Shown here piece by piece: positions 892 to 37,578 of a stretch of 64,000 nucleotides of DNA. The notes beneath the pieces are model-generated. The model saw only the letters and a list, made by a program, of their open reading frames with translations. It made no database searches and had not been told where the DNA came from. Position 1 is the first letter of the stretch, and each line of letters starts with the position of its first letter. The stretch spans positions 53,075 to 117,074 of the forward strand of contig JBPCOQ010000128.1 in assembly GCA_051000095.1 (NCBI GenBank), read 5' to 3'. A program made the position numbers and the translations under genes. The DNA is from Bryobacteraceae bacterium. GTDB lineage: Bacteria; Acidobacteriota; Terriglobia; Bryobacterales; Bryobacteraceae.

Positions 892-967
892 TGGTGGCCA
901 GGGACGGAATCGAACCGCCGACGCCAGCCTTTTCAGGGCTGCGCTCTACCGACTGAGCTACCTGGCC
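892..967 (-). tRNA. tRNA-Phe (anticodon GAA), with CCA encoded
   Basis: The reverse complement reads GGCCAGGTAGCTCAGTCGGTAGAGCGCAGCCCTGAAAAGGCTGGCGTCGGCGGTTCGATTCCGTCCCTGGCCACCA. It folds as a 76-nt cloverleaf with a 7-bp acceptor stem, anticodon loop CTGAAAA and T-loop GGTTCGATTCC. Confidence 0.93.
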
Positions 968-10967: not shown

Positions 10968-10995
10968 GTAGCACAGGCATTCCTGCCTGTGTGGT
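10968..10995 (+). repeat. Type A REP-like hairpin (GTAG + cacaggca-ttcc-tgcctgtg)
   Basis: gtagcacaggcattcctgcctgtgtggt. The TAG of the alternative M16 frame lies inside the GTAG. Confidence 0.7.
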
Positions 10996-17557: not shown

Positions 17558-19102
17558 TCATTTGACCGTCGGATAAGTGATTCCGAGTTGCTCCAGATAC
17601 GTCTTGTATTTCGCCGGATCGTAATAGTATTTCTTCAGCTCGGGTGTAAACTTCCCCATCTTCTCTTTATTCAACTCGATTGCAGGCTGATCGCTGGGGC
17701 TGATGAGCGGCTGGTATTTTATATCTTTCGTCTGAACGTTACGAAAATAATCCCAGGCCTGCGTCACCAGCTCCGGGCGTAACAGAAAATCCAGCGCGGT
17801 CGCCACTTGAACTTTCGCGCCCGCCGTCGAGCCCTTGTGCGCGATCGGAGTCGCCATCGCAACGGCATTCGGCCAACTGTGCCCAGGCAGGTTCGGGATA
17901 TTGGCAGGGTATCGCAAGTAGACGGTTGGCACGTTCCATGCGATGTCGCCGATGTCGTCCGACCCGCCACCGCGAGGTTGCTTGGGCGGCGTGAGCGGCT
18001 TCACCTGATGACTCAATCCCTCCACCTTGGCCCCGATGTCTTTCTGCAGAGCCTTGGCGAGCGCCTGGTCGTTGTCGCTCCATTCTGGCATGCCAACCAT
18101 CTCCATATTCTTCTGCTCTACCTCGGCAATCACCTTATTGAAATGCGGAGGCCAGGCGGAGCCCAGCACCCGTTGCGTCACGGTTGTTCCCGTCATCATT
18201 GCGGCGGCGTTAGCGAATGTATTCCCAAATTCGTGGAGTTCCTTGATATGTGGATAATCCAACTCGCGGAAGTAATACCAGACGGAGGCTTCGGATGGGA
18301 CGACGTTCGGCTGGTCGCCGCCATTCACGATCACATAGTGCGAGCGCTGCTCCGGCCGCAGATGCTCGCGCTTGAAATTCCAAGCCACGTCCATCAATTC
18401 CACCGCGTCCAGAGCGCTCTTCCCCTGCCAGGGAGCTCCGGCCGCATGCGCCGCCACTCCGTGAAACGAGTACAGCACGGAGACCAGGCCGCTACTGATG
18501 TCGCTCACGCCATAGTTGGTCGCAAACTCGTGGCCCACGTGACATCCCAGCACCAGGTCGACATCCTTGAATAGCCCGGCTCGCACATAGAACGCTTTTG
18601 TGGCGACCAGTTCTTCCGCCACTCCCGGATACAGTCGAAGCGTGCCCGGAATGTGGTATTTATTCATGAGATTCTTCAGCACCAGCGCGGCCGTAACATT
18701 CACGGCCTGTCCCGAGTTGTGCCCTTCGCCATGCCCCGGCGCTCCTTCGATAATGGGAGCGTGATAAGCCACGCCTGGCTTCTGCGAGGCTCGTGGAATC
18801 CCATCGATGTCGGTCATAAACCCGATCACCGGCTTGCCCGACCCGTAGCTCGCAATCCAAGCTGTCGGAATGCCCGCCACTCCACGCTGCACGGCGAACC
18901 CGTTCTTCTCGAGAACGCCGGTCAGATACCGCGAAGTTTCAATTTCCTGAAATCCCAACTCGCTAAAACTGAAGATCTGATCCACCATCTGCTGCGTCAT
19001 GGTGCGCAGTTGATCGACTCCGGCGATACCCTCCTTCTTCAACTCATCGAGAGGCTGAGCGAATACAAGAGCAGGCGCGATTAGCAACACCAGGAGTTTC
19101 AT
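17558..19102 (-). CDS. Secreted M20-family amidohydrolase (AbgB-like)
   Basis: Signal MKLLVLLIAPALVFA, then GFMTDIDGIP...GHGEGHNSG...GCHVGHE, in 514 aa. Confidence 0.75.
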   Translation of the reverse strand: MKLLVLLIAPALVFAQPLDELKKEGIAGVDQLRTMTQQMVDQIFSFSELGFQEIETSRYLTGVLEKNGFAVQRGVAGIPTAWIASYGSGKPVIGFMTDIDGIPRASQKPGVAYHAPIIEGAPGHGEGHNSGQAVNVTAALVLKNLMNKYHIPGTLRLYPGVAEELVATKAFYVRAGLFKDVDLVLGCHVGHEFATNYGVSDISSGLVSVLYSFHGVAAHAAGAPWQGKSALDAVELMDVAWNFKREHLRPEQRSHYVIVNGGDQPNVVPSEASVWYYFRELDYPHIKELHEFGNTFANAAAMMTGTTVTQRVLGSAWPPHFNKVIAEVEQKNMEMVGMPEWSDNDQALAKALQKDIGAKVEGLSHQVKPLTPPKQPRGGGSDDIGDIAWNVPTVYLRYPANIPNLPGHSWPNAVAMATPIAHKGSTAGAKVQVATALDFLLRPELVTQAWDYFRNVQTKDIKYQPLISPSDQPAIELNKEKMGKFTPELKKYYYDPAKYKTYLEQLGITYPTVK

Positions 19103-19159
19103 ATGATCTATAGATTAACGCGTTAGCGTTCTTTCGGATGCGATGATTGTTGGAGATCA

Positions 19160-20386
19160 ATGAACTATATAACCCATCTAGAGTGCAGCCTGTGTAGCAA
19201 ACAATTCCCGGCGGCAACCGTGCAGAACCTATGCTCCTGCGGCGGTCCGCTGCTGGTCCGCTACGATCTCGAGAAGACCAGGCAAACCTGGCCGCGGGAT
19301 TCCGTCGCGCGTGGGCCTTCCAGCATGTGGCGGTACGCTCCGGTGCTACCGGTTCGCAACGCGTCCTCCATCGTCACCTTGGGAGAGGGAATGACGCCGC
19401 TCATCAGGACCGATCGGCTTGCAAAGCGCCTCGGGGCGCGCAACCTGTGGGTCAAAGATGAGGGGATCAACCCCACCGGGTCGTTCAAGGCGCGCGGCCT
19501 TTCGTGCGCGATCTCGATGTGCGTCGAGCTTGGCATTCGGAAAGTGGCCATTCCGTCCGCTGGCAACGCGGCGAGCGCCATGGCGGCGTATGCGGCGGCC
19601 GCTGGATTGGAGTCGTTCATTTTCATGCCGCGCGATGTGCCTCAATCGAATTACATCGAGTGCAAGGCTTTCGGAGCAAACGTCACGCTGGTGGACGGAC
19701 TGATCAGCGATTGCGGAAAAATCGTCGCGGAGCGCAAGGACCCCGAAGGATGGTTCGACGTCAGTACCTTGAAAGAGCCTTACCGCATCGAAGGTAAAAA
19801 GACGATGGGCTACGAGGTTGCCGAGCAGTTCGATTGGGAGCTGCCCGATGTGATCTTCTATCCGGCGGGCGGCGGGGTCGGGCTAATCGGGATGTGGAAA
19901 GCGTTCGGCGAGATGGACGCCATGGGCTGGATCTCATCCAAGCGGCCCAAGATGATCGCGGTTCAGGCGGAAGGCTGCCAGCCAGTGGTCCGCGCTTTCG
20001 AGCAAGGAAAAGAGCGCAGTGAGTTCTGGGAAAATGCATACACGATAGCAAGCGGGCTACGGGTCCCGAAGCCACTTGGGGATTTTCTAATCCTCGATGC
20101 AGTTCGAAAAAGTGGCGGAACCGCGATCGCGGTGAGCGACGCCGAGGCGCTGGATTCCGGCGTGGACCTGGCAACGGATGAGGGAATCTTCGCCGCTCCG
20201 GAAGGCGGCGCCTGTATCGCGGCGCTCCGGAAATTGCTGGCAAATGGCTTCCTCAAGGCGGACGAGCGAATCGTGATCTACAACACCGGCGCGGGTCTGA
20301 AGTATCTGGAAGCGTACTCGACCCGCTTCCCCCGGGTAACGGCCTCGGAGCAGGACAAACTGGGCGGCTTGATCACACCAAGATAG
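19160..20386 (+). CDS. thrC: Threonine synthase
   Basis: N-terminal zinc ribbon HLECSLCSK...CSCGG, PLP lysine motif GSFKARG, 408 aa. Confidence 0.88.
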   Translation: MNYITHLECSLCSKQFPAATVQNLCSCGGPLLVRYDLEKTRQTWPRDSVARGPSSMWRYAPVLPVRNASSIVTLGEGMTPLIRTDRLAKRLGARNLWVKDEGINPTGSFKARGLSCAISMCVELGIRKVAIPSAGNAASAMAAYAAAAGLESFIFMPRDVPQSNYIECKAFGANVTLVDGLISDCGKIVAERKDPEGWFDVSTLKEPYRIEGKKTMGYEVAEQFDWELPDVIFYPAGGGVGLIGMWKAFGEMDAMGWISSKRPKMIAVQAEGCQPVVRAFEQGKERSEFWENAYTIASGLRVPKPLGDFLILDAVRKSGGTAIAVSDAEALDSGVDLATDEGIFAAPEGGACIAALRKLLANGFLKADERIVIYNTGAGLKYLEAYSTRFPRVTASEQDKLGGLITPR

Positions 20387-20430
20387 TGGCACAGGCACGA
20401 TCGTGCGCAAGCGCATTCTTGCCTGTGTTG
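20386..20430 (+). repeat. Type A REP-like hairpin with an expanded loop
   Basis: gtggcacaggca-cgatcgtgcgcaagcgcattct-tgcctgtgttg, starting at the last base of the thrC stop codon. Confidence 0.6.
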
Positions 20431-20575
20431 GATTGCGCCAGCCCATGCGCCGTCGCAGACGCGCGAACCGATCGAACGAATGCCCCCGAGCCGAGCTGCT
20501 CACTGACATCCGCCGGCGGCACACATTAGCATTGGGCAGAAGATTTCCCCACCAAAACGGAAGACTGCTACTCCC

Positions 20576-20590
20576 TTTGCTATCCTGATC
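20576..20590 (+). promoter_or_regulatory. Candidate extended -10 promoter (TGcTATCCT) for a leaderless DUF1015 mRNA
   Basis: tttgctatcctgatc. The hexamer TATCCT ends 6 nt before the ATG at 20592. The same 15-mer recurs at 29389 and 29888. Confidence 0.3.
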
Positions 20591-20591
20591 G

Positions 20592-21830
20592 ATGGCCAAC
20601 CTACATCCGTTCCAACCCTACCGTTACAGTTCCAAAGCAGGCCCCCTCGAAACACTGGTCACGCAGCCCTACGACAAGATCTCGCCCGCCATGCAGACCC
20701 GCTATCTTTCGCTCAACCCTCACAACCTGGTGCGCGTGATCTTAGGCGAGCGGTTCCCGTCGGACACGGACCAGAACAACGTGTACACCCGTGCCGCGCA
20801 GTATCTAAACGACTGGATTCGAGACGGAATTTTGGTGCAGGAAGATCGGCCCAGCTTCTATGCCTACTCGCAGGAGTTCACACTCCCGGATAGCGACGAA
20901 AAACTGCGGCGCCAAGGCCTGATCGGCCTGTGTGCCTTGGAGGAATACCAAAAGGGAGTCGTGCATCGTCACGAACAGACACTGACCGGGCCCAAGAAGG
21001 ATCGCACGGAGCTCCTGAACCATACTCGCGCCCATTTTGGGCAAATCTTCATGCTCTATCCCGATCCGGAGCTTGCCGTGGATCGATTGCTGGAACAGGC
21101 AGCGCGCAACGCGCCGTCGGCCACCGTCACCGACGAGTACGGGACGATTCACCGGGTTTGGAAGATTGCGGATTCCAAACTGACCTCGAAGATCCAGCAG
21201 TTGATGTCGGACAAGAAACTGCTGATCGCCGACGGCCACCATCGCTACGAGACGGCGCTCGCTTTCAAGAATGCGAATCCGCGGGTTGCGGACGCCTCGA
21301 AAGTGATGATGACCTTCGTCAACATGCATTCACCCGGCCTCAAGATCCTGGCTACGCACCGGTTAGTGAACGGCCTCGATGGATTCGAAGCCTCGGCATT
21401 CCTCGGCAAGGTGCAGACCCGTCCCTTGGCGTCGATTGAGGAACTCAAGGCGCTGTTCGCGAAACCCGCGCCGGAGAAAGTCAGGATCGGCATTGCAATC
21501 GCCGGATCGCCTCACATCCGCTTGTATGAGCGTAATCGCGGGCCGGGCGAACTGGACATCAAAGTTCTACACGACTATTTACTCGGACAGGTGCTCGGTA
21601 TCGGCGAAGAGGCTGTGCGGGAAGAGAAGCATCTGGAGTACGTGCGCGGCGTGGATGCGGCCTATGACAAAATCCGTAGCGGGTCGGCCCAGATCGGATT
21701 TCTACTTGAGCCAACTACCGTCCAGCAGGTAGCCGACGTGGCATTTTCGGGTGGCGTAATGCCCCAGAAGTCGACCGACTTTTACCCCAAGCTGCTTACC
21801 GGGCTGACAATCTACAAATTAGAGAAGTGA
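20592..21830 (+). CDS. DUF1015 family protein
   Basis: MANLHPFQPYRYS...LVTQPYDKIS...ADGHHRYETAL is a typical DUF1015 pattern. Confidence 0.8.
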   Translation: MANLHPFQPYRYSSKAGPLETLVTQPYDKISPAMQTRYLSLNPHNLVRVILGERFPSDTDQNNVYTRAAQYLNDWIRDGILVQEDRPSFYAYSQEFTLPDSDEKLRRQGLIGLCALEEYQKGVVHRHEQTLTGPKKDRTELLNHTRAHFGQIFMLYPDPELAVDRLLEQAARNAPSATVTDEYGTIHRVWKIADSKLTSKIQQLMSDKKLLIADGHHRYETALAFKNANPRVADASKVMMTFVNMHSPGLKILATHRLVNGLDGFEASAFLGKVQTRPLASIEELKALFAKPAPEKVRIGIAIAGSPHIRLYERNRGPGELDIKVLHDYLLGQVLGIGEEAVREEKHLEYVRGVDAAYDKIRSGSAQIGFLLEPTTVQQVADVAFSGGVMPQKSTDFYPKLLTGLTIYKLEK

Positions 21831-21930
21831 GGCCGGGCATAGCGCGCCACAACCTGCTTGCCACCGTTCGCGAAGCGCTCCCGGCCCAACCCTCCATTAA
21901 GAGAAGCGTCGCCGAGCCGCGATATGCTGA

Positions 21931-22098
21931 ATCTACGTCTCTCAAAATAAGAATGAACATCCCAAGCCGGGTCCCGAGGATCGTGCCCGTGCTAGTATCG
22001 ATCGCCTGCTCGTCAGCGCCGGTTGGTCGATCCAAAATCCCCCTGCCCGGAGGCCGGGCAAAGACTTGAATCAAAACAAAGGACTTGCCATGGCCGCA
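21931..22098 (+). pseudogene. Start-less remnant of the N-terminus of a restriction-type helicase (HsdR/Res-like)
   Basis: The frame opened by the TGA at 21928 reads ...SQNKNEHPKPGPEDRARASIDRLLVSAGWSIQN...KGLAMA. The xE(D)xAR..ID.LL..AGW.(V/I)Q motif is the recalled N-terminal signature of type I/III R subunits. There is no start codon and no downstream helicase. Confidence 0.35.
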
Positions 22099-22612
22099 TC
22101 CTGTGTTTTCGAGGGTGCCGTGAGACGGGTTCCGCCCGCCTCGCCGTCGTCGTGGTGCTGTTGGCTTTGCTGCTGCTCTGCGTTCATCGAATCCTCCCTC
22201 TGCTCCTTGCATTTGAAGATTCAGCCCTGCGCCCCGTAGGGCTACTATGGCTGCTGACTTCTCCATTCCTGTCCCGCTACATTGCTGGCGCGGTAGTCCG
22301 GTGTGAACGGACCAGAACGGAGTTCTCGAGGTAAGACATGCCTTCTTCTTCCGAATGCGTCGGATCTACCCCGCAACGTTCCGAATGACAATCGGGCTTC
22401 CCCACGGCACGTGCGCAAGCGCATCCCTGGCTGGGTGACCCAACGCTGCTTGGCCTTGTATCCGCTTCCTGTAAGTCGCATCTGGGATTTCGTCGTCGGC
22501 TTTCTTCAGATTCCGCCTCGCGGCGGACGCCCTTGCTTAGACGGATGGTTCCGGTCATTAACGGTCCATAGGGAACTTGCACCCCCTGAATGCACATCAC
22601 GACTCGACACAC
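22071..22612 (-). mobile_element. Truncated group II intron (class C-like): domains I-III plus the first ~38 codons of the intron ORF
   Basis: The minus strand starts GTGTG at 22612. It contains ...UAAGCAAGGGCGUCCGCCGCGAGGCGGAAUCUGAAGAAAGCCGACG... and ...GAGAAGUCAGCAGCCAUAGUAGCCCUACGGGGCGCAGGGC..., then GGGAGG-N5-ATG at 22187. No domain V/VI or RT follows. Confidence 0.6.
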
Positions 22613-22634
22613 CAGGCGAAACCGCCTGTTCCAC
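22613..22634 (-). repeat. Type B REP-like hairpin, the apparent insertion target of the intron
   Basis: The minus strand reads GTGGAACAGGCGGTTTCGCCTG, immediately followed by the intron GTGTG. Confidence 0.65.
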
Positions 22635-22705
22635 TATGCTGAGAACCAGTCGCTTCTCGCAAAGTAGAGTGGCATTGGCCACCCATTCGATACGACGACG
22701 CTACA

Positions 22706-23584
22706 ATGGCGTCATATATGCACCGCCTCTTGTTGCATAACGACGACATTGTGGACACCACAGCTCCCTGCGTTTCACCCGGGCAAGTCGGACTGCTGAA
22801 CGGCTGGGGCGTGTTCAGCACCATCCGGGTTTCAAACGGCGCGCTGTTCGTATTCCCGCGGCATTGGGAGCGAATGAAAGCCGACGCGCACAAGCTGCAT
22901 GTTCCGTTTCCGGACGATCCCGAGTGGATGAGCAGCCGGCTGTTGAAGCTCGTCGATGCCAATCGCGCGACCGACGCAACCTTGCGGGTGGCTGTCGTCC
23001 GGAATCGCGGAGGGCTTTTTGAAGCGCCTGGTCAAAGCCGGGCCTTCGACCTGATCGCCTTTACCGCCGATACCGTGGCGTGGCCGCAAGGCGTGCGGTT
23101 AGGGATCAAGCCACAAGCCCGGCACGCGCAATCCGAGTTTGCAGGCACCAAGATTTTATCCTGGGCCTTCAACCTGACCTGGTACGAGGAGGCTCATCAG
23201 AAAGGCTTCGACGAATACCTGCTGCTGAATGAGCGCGGCGAGGTGTGCGAGTGTACCTCGGCGAACATCTTTGCTGTGTACGGGACCGGCGTCTGGACGC
23301 CGCCTCTCGATTCCGGCTGCCTGGGCGGCATCACCCGGGCGATTCTGGTCGAGGAAATTCGCCTCCCCGGAATCGGGATTGGTGAGAAGCCCTTGTTGCC
23401 GGCCGACCTCGCCCGGGCCGATCAGGTCTTTATTACCTCAACCACGCGTGACTTGCTGCCGGTGATTCACATCGAAGGTCTGGATGTGAAGACCGGGTCT
23501 CCGGTCGTGTCTAAACTACAACAGGCGTTTACCGGCTATCGCAGCAGGCTATTAACCCCAGAGTGTACTGTTGGTAATTTGTGA
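22706..23584 (+). CDS. Class IV aminotransferase (BCAT / aminodeoxychorismate lyase-like)
   Basis: GLLNGWGVFSTIR...HWERM...LRVAVVRNRGG...EYLLLNERGEVCECTSANIF is the fold-type IV pattern. An alternative start is MHRLLL at 22718. Confidence 0.75.
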   Translation: MASYMHRLLLHNDDIVDTTAPCVSPGQVGLLNGWGVFSTIRVSNGALFVFPRHWERMKADAHKLHVPFPDDPEWMSSRLLKLVDANRATDATLRVAVVRNRGGLFEAPGQSRAFDLIAFTADTVAWPQGVRLGIKPQARHAQSEFAGTKILSWAFNLTWYEEAHQKGFDEYLLLNERGEVCECTSANIFAVYGTGVWTPPLDSGCLGGITRAILVEEIRLPGIGIGEKPLLPADLARADQVFITSTTRDLLPVIHIEGLDVKTGSPVVSKLQQAFTGYRSRLLTPECTVGNL

Positions 23585-23606
23585 TTCGATCTATAATCGA
23601 GTGACA

Positions 23607-24029
23607 ATGGCTTTTGTTGCCTGCCCCAGTTGCGGCGGGAAGAATGTTCGTACATCCCGAATCCACTCGAGTGTCGAACGGGTTCAGAGCCTGATTGGCA
23701 TCTGCCCGTTCCGCTGCAAGGGTTGCAGCCACCGATTTACCGCGTCCGTTTGGGATCTCAGCACCTGGCGGTTTGCGCGGTGTCCGAAGTGCCTGCGCGC
23801 TGAGCTAAGTACCTGGTCGGAGCAGTACTACAATCCACCGTTCCGGACGGTTTTCCTGCTGCGGATTGGAGCAACGCCTTACCGGTGCGAGGGTTGCCGT
23901 TGTAATTTCGCGAGCTTCCGCGCGTGCAAAGAGCGCTTTTCCTGGAGACGACGGCGCGAGGAGACAGTGGAAGCTCAAGCAGCGGCGGCAGCCCGATCGG
24001 CGAACCCGCAACCCGCAGCCGAGTCATGA
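23607..24029 (+). CDS. Cys-rich protein with two tandem zinc-ribbon-like modules
   Basis: CPSCGG...CPFRCKGC and CPKC...YRCEGC (four CxxC pairs in two similar modules), with a basic/Ala-rich tail. The start was chosen at MAFVACPSCGG. Confidence 0.45.
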   Translation: MAFVACPSCGGKNVRTSRIHSSVERVQSLIGICPFRCKGCSHRFTASVWDLSTWRFARCPKCLRAELSTWSEQYYNPPFRTVFLLRIGATPYRCEGCRCNFASFRACKERFSWRRRREETVEAQAAAAARSANPQPAAES

Positions 24030-24816: not shown

Positions 24817-25029
24817 TTAATGTTTGTGGTGCTTGAGCGCCTCGCGAATCTTGGCGACATGAGTGCCATGCACACGAATCGCTTCATGCAACTGCTGGCC
24901 GGTAACATGAAGCTCCGCGGCCCAGTAATGGATATCGGAGGCCAGCTTCGGATTGATCTCGTTCGGATCGTGCGGGCCCGTCTTTTTTGGGACTTCCTGC
25001 TCGTCTGGAACTGGTTTTTGGTCTGACAT
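24817..25029 (-). CDS. DUF3606 family protein
   Basis: DPNEINPKLASDIHYWAAELHVTGQQLHEAIRVHGTHVAKIREAL matches the DUF3606 pattern (D..rIn...e.e.rYW...l.vs...L..Av..vG). GAGG RBS. Confidence 0.6.
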   Translation of the reverse strand: MSDQKPVPDEQEVPKKTGPHDPNEINPKLASDIHYWAAELHVTGQQLHEAIRVHGTHVAKIREALKHHKH

Positions 25030-25066
25030 GGTTCCTCTTTCCTGCCCGAAGGCTACTTAGGTGAAT

Positions 25067-25075
25067 ACTATAGCA
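25067..25075 (-). promoter_or_regulatory. Candidate extended -10 promoter (TGcTATAGT) for the DUF3606 gene
   Basis: The minus strand reads aaTGCTATAGTattc, about 40 nt upstream of the ATG at 25029. Confidence 0.3.
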
Positions 25076-25082
25076 TTTGTAC

Positions 25083-25103
25083 AAAAAGCGATAAGGCCAT
25101 CGC
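25083..25103 (-). terminator. Rho-independent terminator of hicBA
   Basis: The minus strand reads GCGAT-GGCCTT-ATCGC-TTTTT, 55 nt after the hicA stop. Confidence 0.55.
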
Positions 25104-25157
25104 TCTTCTGTGCAGGTTGCCCTTTACGCTATCCATCATGCGGCAATGGTGATGCAT

Positions 25158-25355
25158 CTACCACCGCAAGTTCGCGTCCCGCGCGATGCGATTCGCGAGT
25201 CCGGGCTTGAGACCGCGGCTTCCATGGACTGGGAATGCGAGCACTTTGCGCTCGCCAGGCTTGGCATAAATGTGATGACTGCCGGCGATCCTCTGGAGTT
25301 TCCAGCCGTTGGCCACGAGCAAACGGCACATCTCTGGTCCCGTGATGGGCTTCAG
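25158..25355 (-). CDS. hicA: HicA-type toxin (mRNA interferase)
   Basis: (L)KPITGPEMCRLLVANGWKLQRIAGSHHIYAKPGERKVLAFPVHGSRGLKPGLANRIARDANL. The GW...GSHH...P.H motifs are typical. It is absent from the ORF track because the only ATG (25331) gives 57 aa. The full-length alignment needs the CTG at 25355. Confidence 0.7.
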   Translation of the reverse strand: MKPITGPEMCRLLVANGWKLQRIAGSHHIYAKPGERKVLAFPVHGSRGLKPGLANRIARDANLRW

Positions 25356-25359
25356 ACAG

Positions 25360-25560
25360 CTACATCAGAATCTGGATATTCGGCTCTGGCTGGCGACCCT
25401 GCTCCCTTAGAACTTCAAGCACTCCAGCGATCGCCTCGCGCACGTTGTCCCTGAGTTCTGCGACCGATTCTCCTTGTGAATAGCAGCCGGGCAAAGCTGG
25501 CACTTCGGCCCAAAAACCCCCTTCGGGATCTTCGTGAATCACAACGGCATACTTGGTCAC
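25360..25560 (-). CDS. hicB: HicB-type antitoxin (UPF0150 fold)
   Basis: YAVVIHEDPEGGFWAEVPALPGCYSQGESVAELRDNVREAI is the typical HicB N-domain. Confidence 0.75.
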   Translation of the reverse strand: MTKYAVVIHEDPEGGFWAEVPALPGCYSQGESVAELRDNVREAIAGVLEVLREQGRQPEPNIQILM

Positions 25561-29342: not shown

Positions 29343-29387
29343 GTACTCCACCCTCGCTTTTTTATTATGCGCCAGCGCCACAACCGC

Positions 29388-29508
29388 CTTTGCTATCCTG
29401 ATCTTTAAGCTCCTACTGCATTATGTTCGAGGGATACGATCCGGGCGGCGCGGCCGTGCTGGTCAACGTGGCAACCGGCGATGAGGACCAGTGGAGAAGT
29501 GATCTCGG
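29388..29508 (+). pseudogene. Mosaic, internally deleted copy of the yebC upstream region and two yebC coding segments
   Basis: 29388-29419 is identical to 29887-29918. 29423-29477 matches 30202-30256 with 3 mismatches. 29478-29508 matches 30442-30472 with one extra A. Confidence 0.8.
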
Positions 29509-29802: not shown

Positions 29803-29900
29803 AAATCCTGCTCGATGAATGCTTGCCACGGAAGCTAGGCAGGCTTTTGGAAAGACACTCTATCCGGCAAGGTCCCGATCCAGCGTCTTTGCTATCCTGA
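29799..29900 (+). pseudogene. Truncated DUF5615-like (PIN-like partner of DUF433) gene
   Basis: MKILLDECLPRKLGRLLERHSIRQ matches the N-terminus of the DUF5615 family. It then runs into the 32-nt repeat and stops after 33 codons. Confidence 0.55.
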
Positions 29901-29949
29901 TCTTTAAGCTCCTACTGCTCCCGGCTTTCGGAGCGCACGAGGTCTAACC

Positions 29950-30693
29950 ATGTCAGGACATTCAAAATGGGCGACGATTAAGCACAAGAAAGCCGCTCTC
30001 GACGCGAAGCGCGGGAAATCGTTCACCCGCATTATTAAGGAAATCATGATTGCCGCCCGCAGCGGGGGCGACCCGGACATGAATCCGCGGCTGCGCACCG
30101 CCATCGTTGCGGCGAAAGCGGCCAGCATGCCGGCCGACAACATCAAGCGCGCGATCATGCGCGGCACCGGTGAGCTCGAGGGCGGGCAGATCGATGAAAT
30201 CATGTTCGAGGGGTACGGTCCGGGCGGCGCGGCCGTGCTGGTCAACGTGGCTACCGACAACCGCAACCGCACGGTCAGCGAAATTCGCCACATGTTTTCA
30301 AAGAACGGCGGTAATCTCGGCGAGCAAGGCAGCGTGGCGTGGATGTTCGAGCGCAAAGGCCAGATCCTGATCGAGAAGGATAAAGCTGGCGAAGATCAGT
30401 TGATGAACATCGTGCTGGACTCGGGCGCCGACGACCTGCGCGGCGATGAGGACCAGTGGGAAGTGATCTCGGCGCCGGAAGCGCACGAAGCCGTGCAACT
30501 AGCCATTCAAAAAGCCGGCATACCCACGCTTTCCGCGCAGCTTGCCATGATTCCCAAAAACCTGATGAAGCTTGAGGGCAAGAATGTTTCCGGCATGCTG
30601 CGTCTGAGCGAGGCTCTGGAAGAGCACGATGACGTGCAGAACGTGTATTCCAATTTCGACGTCGACGAAAAAGAGCTCGAGGCTCTCGCTTAA
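29950..30693 (+). CDS. yebC: YebC/PmpR family transcriptional regulator
   Basis: [23 protein letters not shown]...[13 protein letters not shown]... is canonical. Confidence 0.92.
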
Positions 30694-37048: not shown

Positions 37049-37578
37049 AACTCGTCTCGTCAGTAGAAAAATACAGCAACCCGCTCTTCCGGGTTACCGA
37101 AGATCACGCCGTCGATCCCAGCGGCTTTGAAATCCACCGAGCCATCGTGCAGCACATAGGGTCGGCGGTAATGATGGCCGTGGATGAGCGCAAGCGCATT
37201 CTGCTTGTCAGGCAGTACAGGCTGCCCGCGCGGCAATACCTATGGGAGCTGCCCGCCGGCCGTCTGGACGAAGGCGAAACGCCGCTGCAAGCTGCCAAGC
37301 GCGAGTTGATCGAGGAGACCGGCTACCGCGCCCGCCAGTGGGACAAGCTGGCAGTCTTCTATCCCAGCCCTGGCTACGTGGCCGAGAAGATGACGATCTA
37401 TCTTGCGACCAGTCTGACGGAAGGCGAGTCCGCGCCCATGGAAGACGAGCGCATCGAGGCGCGCTGGTTCGGCGCCAGGGAGTTAGCCGAGTGGATCGAT
37501 AGCGGAAAGATCATCGATGCAAAGACGATGATTGGCTATTTCCACTGGAAGCGCCACTTTGCAAGTAAAAGAGCATAG
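37045..37578 (+). CDS. NUDIX hydrolase (ADP-ribose pyrophosphatase-like)
   Basis: Nudix box GRLDEGETPLQAAKRELIEETGY and an ATGA overlap with polX. Confidence 0.82.
   Translation: MKLVSSVEKYSNPLFRVTEDHAVDPSGFEIHRAIVQHIGSAVMMAVDERKRILLVRQYRLPARQYLWELPAGRLDEGETPLQAAKRELIEETGYRARQWDKLAVFYPSPGYVAEKMTIYLATSLTEGESAPMEDERIEARWFGARELAEWIDSGKIIDAKTMIGYFHWKRHFASKRA

Follow-up and report, generated by a model that had tools for sequence, protein, structure and literature searches.

A truncated group IIC intron in a REP hairpin of a Bryobacteraceae bacterium and its REP-associated relatives

An intron fragment between two genes

The DNA analysed here is a stretch of 64,000 nucleotides (the window) of a Bryobacteraceae bacterium (GenBank assembly GCA_051000095.1, contig JBPCOQ010000128.1, positions 53,075 to 117,074), and the element in question is a fragment of a group II intron on its minus strand. 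According to the list of open reading frames (ORFs) and Pfam, two plus-strand genes encoding a DUF1015-family protein (20592-21830) and a class IV aminotransferase (22706-23584) are separated by a spacer of 875 bp (21830 to 22706). Three overlapping ORFs are listed in this spacer (21796..22266-, 22277..22612-, 22303..22740+). A first-pass annotation, made from the sequence alone, had regarded them as not protein-like and had read the region as the stump of a class C-like group II intron, inserted behind a hairpin of the repetitive extragenic palindromic (REP) type. Indeed, none of the three ORFs had a Pfam match, and the region from 22612 to ~22100 on the minus strand is the 5' part (~500-528 nt) of a group IIC intron, located in the intergenic region between 21830 and 22706 (Table 1). 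The three meaningless ORFs are thus explained as a dead retroelement, for which the annotation "group II intron fragment" suffices.

The covariance-model check on the minus strand, which had been suggested in the first-pass annotation, was positive: the domain I core matched the Rfam model RF02001 (group-II-D1D4-3) with 99 bits (E 5.9e-19), the gathering score being 32. The domain III (D3)-like block matched RF01998 with 31.7 bits, slightly below the gathering score of 35, and the same block reached 52-68 bits in full-length relatives. The blocks GGAAUCUGAAGAAAGCC and GAGAAGUCAGCAGCCAUAGUAGCC, described before as conserved segments of domains I and III, are both present in their places. Besides the stump matches, Rfam found no group II signals in the 64-kb window. 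The intron starts with GTGTG (GUGUG in the RNA; 22612-22608), which is common to all relatives and which, as already noticed, directly follows the hairpin sequence GTGGAACAGGCGGTTTCGCCTG (22634-22613, -). Further downstream, GGGAGG-ATTCG-ATG opens the reading frame of the intron-encoded protein (IEP), which ends after 38 codons as described. The ATG had been placed ~410 nt from the intron's 5' end, but the distance amounts to 425 nt. Only codons 1 to ~24 are homologous to real IEPs, the N-terminus (MNAEQQ..HH..GGTR.T) matching those of the two full-length copies described next.

A scan of a genome collection with the conserved pattern of domain I (D1) revealed close copies in metagenome-assembled genomes (MAGs) of Acidobacteriota, namely L011 (Bryocella), L036 (Candidatus Sulfotelmatobacter) and L020. 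Full-length members of the family are 1,860-1,890 nt long; those of L011 and L036 and at least 15 metagenome copies align to the stump from intron nt 1 to ~497. The stump was ~80% identical to L011 over intron nt 1-497 (BLAST), and in the family alignment its identity to the nearest full-length copies was as high as 87%. L011 and L036 each encode a protein of 459 amino acids with RVT_1 and GIIM domains and without an endonuclease (En, HNH) domain. The best solved relative of this IEP is the GsI-IIC reverse transcriptase (RT; 6AR1) with 472 bits, followed by other IIC RTs, whereas the scores against other classes were 144 bits (IIB, T.el4h RT) and 130 bits (IIA, LtrA). Domain V (DV) of the family, CCGCCGUAUAC...GUACGGUGG in the full-length relatives, contains the triad CGC and not AGC. 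DV itself is missing from the window copy, so that the CGC triad is a property of the lineage only; likewise, the RT and maturase without En are read from the relatives only, since the window copy keeps ~24 homologous IEP codons. What the window copy does contain is the AGGAA motif of the epsilon-prime bulge, a hallmark of IIC introns (PMC1702495), and the short distance of 425 nt from the 5' end to domain IV is consistent with a IIC-sized domain I. The assignment of the lineage to class C, of which the window copy retains the checkable parts, is well founded, and the "class C-like" of the first-pass annotation is supported by the similarity of the relatives' IEP to the GsI-IIC RT, the CGC-type DV, the AGGAA motif and a pairing of 4 bp with the 5' exon (see below). 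It could be argued that the fragment belongs to another class of group II introns (IIB-like D, E or F), since the Rfam D1D4 models carry no class label and the window copy is devoid of the IEP and DV on which a classification is based. This is hardly credible because full-length copies with a DNA identity of ~80-87% possess an IEP of the class C type, a CGC-type DV, a 4-bp pairing and stem-loop targets, and because more distant relatives matched by RF02001 are located after intrinsic terminators.

These distant relatives were found in a search of plasmids, which revealed distant IIC relatives only. They are annotated full-length introns in L005 (Lactiplantibacillus), L006 (an Enterobacter IncC plasmid) and L007 (Cohnella), each with matches to RF02001 and RF01998 and a ltrA gene for ~460 amino acids that starts 423-441 nt from the intron's 5' end. 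At the junctions of L005 and L006, an intrinsic terminator (hairpin and T-run) is located directly upstream and is followed by GUGCG. With RF00029, the gathering score was reached by L005 and L007 and missed by L006, and a covariance model of domains V and VI (DV/DVI) built for the family (R1, see below) detected DV/DVI in all three. Sister copies in MAGs of Chloroflexia (~67% identical) are located behind terminators made of a GC-hairpin and a T-run, or in tandem behind the domain VI (DVI) of another copy. In the tandem arrangement of L022 (~2500-2620), one Chloroflexia intron starts no more than 2 nt from the 3' end (…CCUACCCG) of another copy, which suggests that the DVI hairpin can itself be a target of IIC introns.

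The REP hairpin as insertion site

The window copy and those of L011, L036 and L020 have the 5' junction G^GTGTGTCGAG in common; further upstream, their sequences are wholly different except for a hairpin of the GT(A/G)G type. A GT(A/G)G head is the feature by which Nunvar et al. reportedly defined REPs in 2010. The window holds 13 strict REP copies in two subfamilies, one of them occupied by the stump and 12 unoccupied. The distance between them and the ends of long ORFs is 0-40 nt, and there are two inverted pairs among them (43976/44018 and 56917/56944). REPs are often found right at the 3' ends of genes, and T-runs behind some copies (44018-, 56828-) give these the look of terminators. In L020, four REP copies are present within 8 kb, of which one is occupied and two form an inverted pair (7849/7872).

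The first-pass annotation had proposed that the REP family acts as a landing pad and had asked whether related copies also sit behind GT(A/G)G hairpins. A metagenome scan with the first 30 nt of the intron yielded 50 loci, mostly soil and peat contigs from JGI, and after dereplication the metagenome and MAG loci amounted to 47 insertion sites with distinct upstream contexts. The nucleotide at -1 was G at all 47 sites, the 5' exon ended with CCTG at 42, and a GT[AG]G head was present 16-24 nt upstream at 44. The predicted hairpin closed exactly at -1 in 37/47 sites and within 1-2 nt in most others. A pyrimidine opened the 3' exon in 20/20 cases. The consensus of the site is a GT(A/G)G…CAGGC-loop-GCCTG hairpin followed by the intron. 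Furthermore, the 3' exon carries on the 3' arm of the REP: joining the exons of L074 (GTAGCACAGGCATTCCTGCCTG-intron-TGTGGTTTTT) restores an intact REP which is identical to the window REP at 10968. Both REP subfamilies serve as targets of related metagenome introns (e.g. L074, L037). The landing-pad idea is therefore strongly supported by the 47 independent sites.

A hairpin accompanies every copy, and its core CAGGC...GCCTG is highly conserved, as it would be if the hairpin belonged to the mobile element and travelled with the intron. However, 12 of the 13 REPs in the window and three of the four in L020 are free of introns, and the 3' exons complete the REP stem; therefore, the hairpin belongs to the repeats of the host and is not cargo of the intron. 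In addition, loops and stems vary with the local REP subfamilies of the host while the first 11 nt of the intron are invariant, and the intron opens with the canonical GUGUG, so that a travelling hairpin is most improbable.

The occupied REP folds, as DNA, into a stem of 6 bp that ends at -1 (-7.3 kcal/mol, z -4.1), whereas the intact REPs of the window have stems of 9 bp (-9 to -11 kcal/mol) with GTGG or GTAG heads. This shows that the insertion point is inside the extended stem. The element had been described as inserted exactly 3' of the hairpin; the adjacency stands, but the site is within the extended REP stem, 6 nt 3' of the loop.

The site is matched by the intron. The exon-binding site 1 (EBS1), CAGG (22429-22426), is complementary to the last 4 nt of the 5' exon, CCUG, the intron-binding site 1 (IBS1), giving a pairing of 4 bp. 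In L005, the IBS1 is UUGA and the homologous loop is GC[UCAA]CA (EBS1 in brackets), in L006 they are UAUG and GC[CAUA]AU, and in the acidobacterial family including the window copy CCUG and GC[CAGG]GA. Thus, EBS1 and IBS1 covary at homologous loop positions across three lineages, which identifies EBS1 and fixes intron nt 1 at 22612. In the family, the EBS1 loop is invariant (ACCCG-GCCAGGGA-CGGG), and in the window copy the stem is maintained by a compensatory pair (CCCA/TGGG). Since the Chloroflexia sisters are located behind terminators, the use of REPs is a lineage-specific specialisation that accompanied the change of EBS1. The near-exclusive integration at GCCTG^Y within GT(A/G)G REPs, explained by EBS1 being CAGG, is a modest but clean novelty.

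Table 1 Features of the intron stump and REP copies in the window
Feature	Position	Strand	Description
Group IIC intron stump	22100..22612	-	Intron nt 1 to ~498-528: domains I-III, start of domain IV, first ~24-34 IEP codons; from BLAST and family alignment
Domain I core	22335..22527	-	RF02001 over its full length, model positions 1-170
Domain III-like segment	22224..22296	-	RF01998-like; conserved motif AGCAGAGGCC shortened by a private deletion of 3 nt
AGGAA motif, epsilon-prime bulge	22466..22470	-	Conserved in the family alignment; within ACAGGAAGCGG (22472-22462)
EBS1 hairpin	22401..22435	-	Stem CCCA (22435-22432) / TGGG (22404-22401); loop GCCAGGGA (22431-22424)
Shine-Dalgarno sequence, ATG and IEP stub	22071..22198	-	GGGAGG 22198-22193, ATG 22187, 38 codons (22187-22071)
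Truncation breakpoint zone	22085..22115	-	From alignments; homology collapses after 22115, weak resemblance to ~22085
Non-intron DNA beside the breakpoint	22040..22109	-	Context only, outside the intron
REP-type hairpin (5' exon)	22613..22634	-	GTGG head, 6-bp stem CAGGCG/CGCCTG, loop GTTT; last 4 nt CCTG (22616-22613) are IBS1
REP subfamily GT(A/G)GCACAGGCATTC(C/T)TGCCTGTG	10968, 17514, 28333, 49566, 55034, 56828		
REP subfamily GTGGA(A/G)CAGGCGGTTTCGCCTG	14766, 22613, 43976, 44018, 56917, 56944		

Loss of the 3' part and decay

Between the breakpoint and the stop codon of the DUF1015 gene, local alignments with the remaining 1.4 kb of the intron or with a 3' exon scored like shuffled sequences. 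To search for DV/DVI, the covariance model R1 was built from 13 family members; it gave 40-95 bits with positive controls, distant plasmid introns included. In the whole 64-kb window, with filters off, its best match had 12 bits (E 0.55). Rfam did not detect DV or DVI at E<=10 over 19000-24000, nor did Pfam detect an RT domain at the stump locus. The earlier statement that no RT, DV or DVI follows the stub is thus borne out. R1 was used because RF00029 was insufficient as proof of the absence of DV: at its gathering threshold it was also silent in L011, L036, L024 and L035. A 10-bit match of R1 at 22070-22111 was considered as a remnant of DV/DVI and rejected as noise. In sum, ~72-74% of the element is lost, comprising the RT/maturase gene, DV, DVI and the 3' splice site; the 3' loss had been recognised before, but its extent is about three quarters rather than two thirds. 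Since nothing of the 3' part of the intron remains, the window copy is predicted to be dead, i.e. it should neither splice nor move. Abortive reverse transcription, following the logic of target-primed reverse transcription, starts at the 3' end of the intron and yields 5' truncations. The window copy has an intact 5' junction and lacks the 3' part, which excludes abortive reverse transcription and makes a deletion after insertion the best explanation; a simple deletion would account for the truncation. The stump resembles other fragmented bacterial group II introns in being a non-functional remnant of a mobile intron and differs in that its truncation is on the 3' side and its 5' junction is intact.

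Besides the truncation, the stump has private lesions, which are found in no other copy of the family: a substitution (A12C), the loss of 3 nt from the conserved motif of D3 (between AGCA and GCC), and a 19-nt insertion (TGCGCTTGCGCACGTGCCG) in the EBS1 loop (22423-22405), which is present only in the window and in L001, a contig of an independent JGI assembly that is 99% identical. An apparent 24-nt deletion in D1 was rejected as a sign of decay, because it corresponds to a lineage-specific extra hairpin that is also missing from many full-length copies.

The 19-nt insertion in the EBS1 loop shares a palindromic core of 14-15 nt, CGTGCGCAAGCGCA(T), with the loop insertion of a REP variant located 2 kb away at 20386-20430(+), where the insertion comprises 18 nt (GTGGCACAGGCA[CGATCGTGCGCAAGCGCA]TTCTTGCCTGTG). 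The 14-mer nested in the two hairpin loops may have arrived as the insertion of a mini-palindrome, or it may represent a templated patch. The palindrome GCGCAAGCGCAT was also considered as a repeat family, but this 12-mer has three matches (one of them at 37188-37199) where ~1 is expected, which is not significant alone.

Decay is common in the family: 9/24 assessable copies are truncated or internally deleted. Among them are stumps of 45, 74, 143, ~330 and ~430 nt, and ORF-less minis retaining DV/DVI. A common motif (REP, microhomology, nested intron) was not found at the breakpoints of the other stumps, the positions of which are unrelated. The window stump is one ordinary example of this decay. 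The ORF-less mini-introns have a size of ~656-680 nt (L051, L058 and L080 from the acidobacterial family, L035 4981-5661 from Chloroflexia); they have kept D1-D3 and DV/DVI and lost the whole IEP gene, and full-length copies could still act in trans to splice or mobilise them.

Both junctions of the window copy are supported by independent assemblies. L001 is base-for-base identical to the window from the DUF1015 gene across the truncation junction to 22457. Three Logan assemblies contribute L002-L004, which match the window without a difference from the aminotransferase side through the junction of REP and intron as far as 22499 or 22530. Beyond 22457, L001 (3594-3714, corresponding to window 22458-22563 and beyond) has ~9 mismatches per 100 nt and its last 16 nt are not intron-like, indicating either that the assembly switched to a paralogous copy of the intron (~90% identical) or that this strain has another local structure. 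Contig breaks inside D1 indicate that these communities contain multiple copies of the intron. Further independent contigs across the breakpoint were not found: the 156-aa ORF of the spacer has no database record, and L091 begins ~8 nt before the aminotransferase ORF. Such a multi-copy element breaks assemblies, as seen from the ends of L002-L004 and the switch of L001, and the stump might therefore be an artefact in which the 5' part of the intron was misjoined at a repeat to unrelated DNA, the locus harbouring in reality a full-length intron or none. This is very unlikely since L001 is identical across the truncation junction. Moreover, a chimeric join would be expected at the 3' end of the intron or at a shared k-mer and not at IEP codon ~25 beside unique DNA, and the private lesions within the stump point to a dead copy of long residence.

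The private lesions also bear on the question of whether the stump has a function as RNA. It might represent the 5' half of a trans-splicing intron split in domain IV, or it might have been domesticated as a structured RNA or a promoter element. The break is indeed located in domain IV, as in natural split introns (PMC4424553), the EBS1 stem is preserved by a compensatory change, and the stump is retained in the 99%-identical strain (L001). Yet the lesions affect conserved elements (the D3 motif, the EBS1 loop and A12), a DV/DVI partner was not found in the 64 kb, IIC introns are located outside genes, so that there is no selection for trans-splicing (PMC1702495), and many other copies are cut at arbitrary points. 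A sigma-70-like promoter was sought in 21700-22800 and not found. We consider such a function to be highly improbable; the window feature itself is ordinary and shows no sign of function.

Two structures directly abut the truncation point, a terminator-like hairpin at 22040-22064(-) (TCTTTGCCCGGCCTCCGGGCAGGGG and GATTTTGG) and an 11-bp inverted repeat at 22073-22109.

Proposed history, known introns and neighbouring sequences

In sum, a IIC intron of ~1.87 kb very probably entered a REP hairpin, later lost its 3' part and left behind an inert stump. From the identity and class of the stump, its 5' junction and target motif, the missing 3' part and the private lesions, all of which are shown by the data, we infer the following order of events. 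A mobile IIC intron would have retrohomed, in minus-strand orientation, into a REP hairpin between the DUF1015 and aminotransferase genes, with the CAGG of its EBS1 loop pairing with CCTG in the 3' arm of the GT(A/G)G REP. Reverse splicing would have taken place between ...GCCTG and the next pyrimidine, a point within the extended stem of the REP. If the intron behaved like other IIC introns that lack En, it may have targeted the hairpin in its extruded form on single-stranded DNA, and the nascent strand at a replication fork may have served as primer for the cDNA. A later deletion, starting at IEP codon ~25-35 and taking in the 3' splice site, would have removed the RT/maturase gene, DV, DVI and the REP tail, and the remaining stump of ~500 nt would then have gained its 19-nt insertion, 3-nt deletion and A12C substitution.

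Some observations weigh against this history. IBS1 is located inside the 3' arm of the hairpin, and the EBS1 pairing and the closed 6-bp stem are, in full, mutually exclusive. No single independent contig covers both junctions. The closest full-length copy sampled is only 87% identical, so the donor lineage is unsampled. An empty or pre-deletion orthologous site was not found, the nearest orthologues of the aminotransferase being 76-81% identical, not syntenic and preceded by other upstream neighbours; it is for this reason that we infer the deletion and its far end.

In many respects, the lineage is similar to the terminator-type IIC introns B.h.I1 of Bacillus halodurans and GsI-IIC of Geobacillus stearothermophilus. 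IIC introns are known to follow terminators or "other inverted repeats" (PMC1702495), and the introns described here are likewise located outside genes, directly downstream of a stem-loop. They share the small ribozyme with ~425 nt to the IEP start, the AGGAA motif, the 4-bp EBS1-IBS1 pairing and, as seen in the full-length relatives, the CGC-type DV and the En-less RT/maturase. Unlike in the terminator type, the stem-loop is a dispersed REP and not a terminator with a T-run, and the window copy is a dead fragment. The splice sites of B.h.I1 are 3-11 nt downstream of the stem (PMC1702495), whereas here the IBS1 (CCTG) lies within the 3' arm of the hairpin and the insertion splits the extended stem.

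Like the IIC-attC introns (S.ma.I2), the acidobacterial sublineage is specialised on one family of repeated, imperfectly palindromic hairpins (PMC4424553), but its target is the GT(A/G)G REP in chromosomes of Acidobacteriota instead of the integron attC, and no integron context was seen. REPs have been described before as insertion sites of mobile elements: certain insertion sequences (IS), i.e. ISPpu9/10, ISPa11 and IS1397, target REPs, and a group II intron of Pseudomonas putida KT2440 is loosely associated with them in 2/9 copies (PMC1525189). The element described here has this in common with them. Unlike the IS, it is a retroelement whose site would be recognised by RNA-DNA pairing, and unlike the occasional association in P. 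putida, its association with REPs is essentially complete (47/47 sites). Searches of an open-access library did not reveal a description of a IIC lineage specialised on REPs, the loose association in P. putida being all that was found; an earlier mention may exist.

We lean towards the view that the acidobacterial lineage of the stump is a distinct target-specificity type of IIC introns, akin to IIC-attC: its EBS1 would have been retuned (CAGG) to the 3' arm of the REP, integration would occur within the stem at GCCTG^Y, the hundreds of REPs of the genome would provide a fitness-neutral landing array, and the Chloroflexia sisters would still use terminators. Three target specificities of bacterial group II introns are distinguished in a review, homing sites, terminators and attC (PMC4424553); to these the family adds a clear and numerically strong case of specialisation on REPs, with the pairing identified by covariation. 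Such a lineage would be a natural example of retargeting by a change of EBS1 and, since IBS1 is inside the stem, a simple system in which to test how DNA hairpins are read by IIC introns. If the proposed target-specificity type is real, the population biology of a retroelement is shaped by REPs and perhaps also by the RAYT system responsible for their spread, and intron stumps embedded in REPs mark past invasions. On the practical side, introns of this kind break short-read assemblies of soil Acidobacteriota at REPs.

Other features of the window were noted in passing. A HicA/HicB toxin-antitoxin pair (25158-25331 and 25360-25560) and a DUF3606 gene (24817-25029) are located 2 kb from the stump in the same neighbourhood (24817-25560, -), as revealed by Pfam matches on the identical contig L091, and a tRNA gene is encoded at 895-967(-) (Rfam RF00005, 70 bits). 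The exact 16-mer CTTTGCTATCCTGATC is present three times on the plus strand (20575-20590, 29388-29403 and 29887-29902), 0.01 occurrences being expected by chance. The first copy stops 1 nt short of the ATG of the DUF1015 gene, the second has an ATG ~20 nt downstream and the third has no obvious start in the stretch read. The second and third copies sit in longer repeats that are 93-97% identical (29385-29477 versus 29884-29918 and 30199-30256). The 16-mer may be a leader or promoter-proximal motif, or the duplicated 5' end of a gene.

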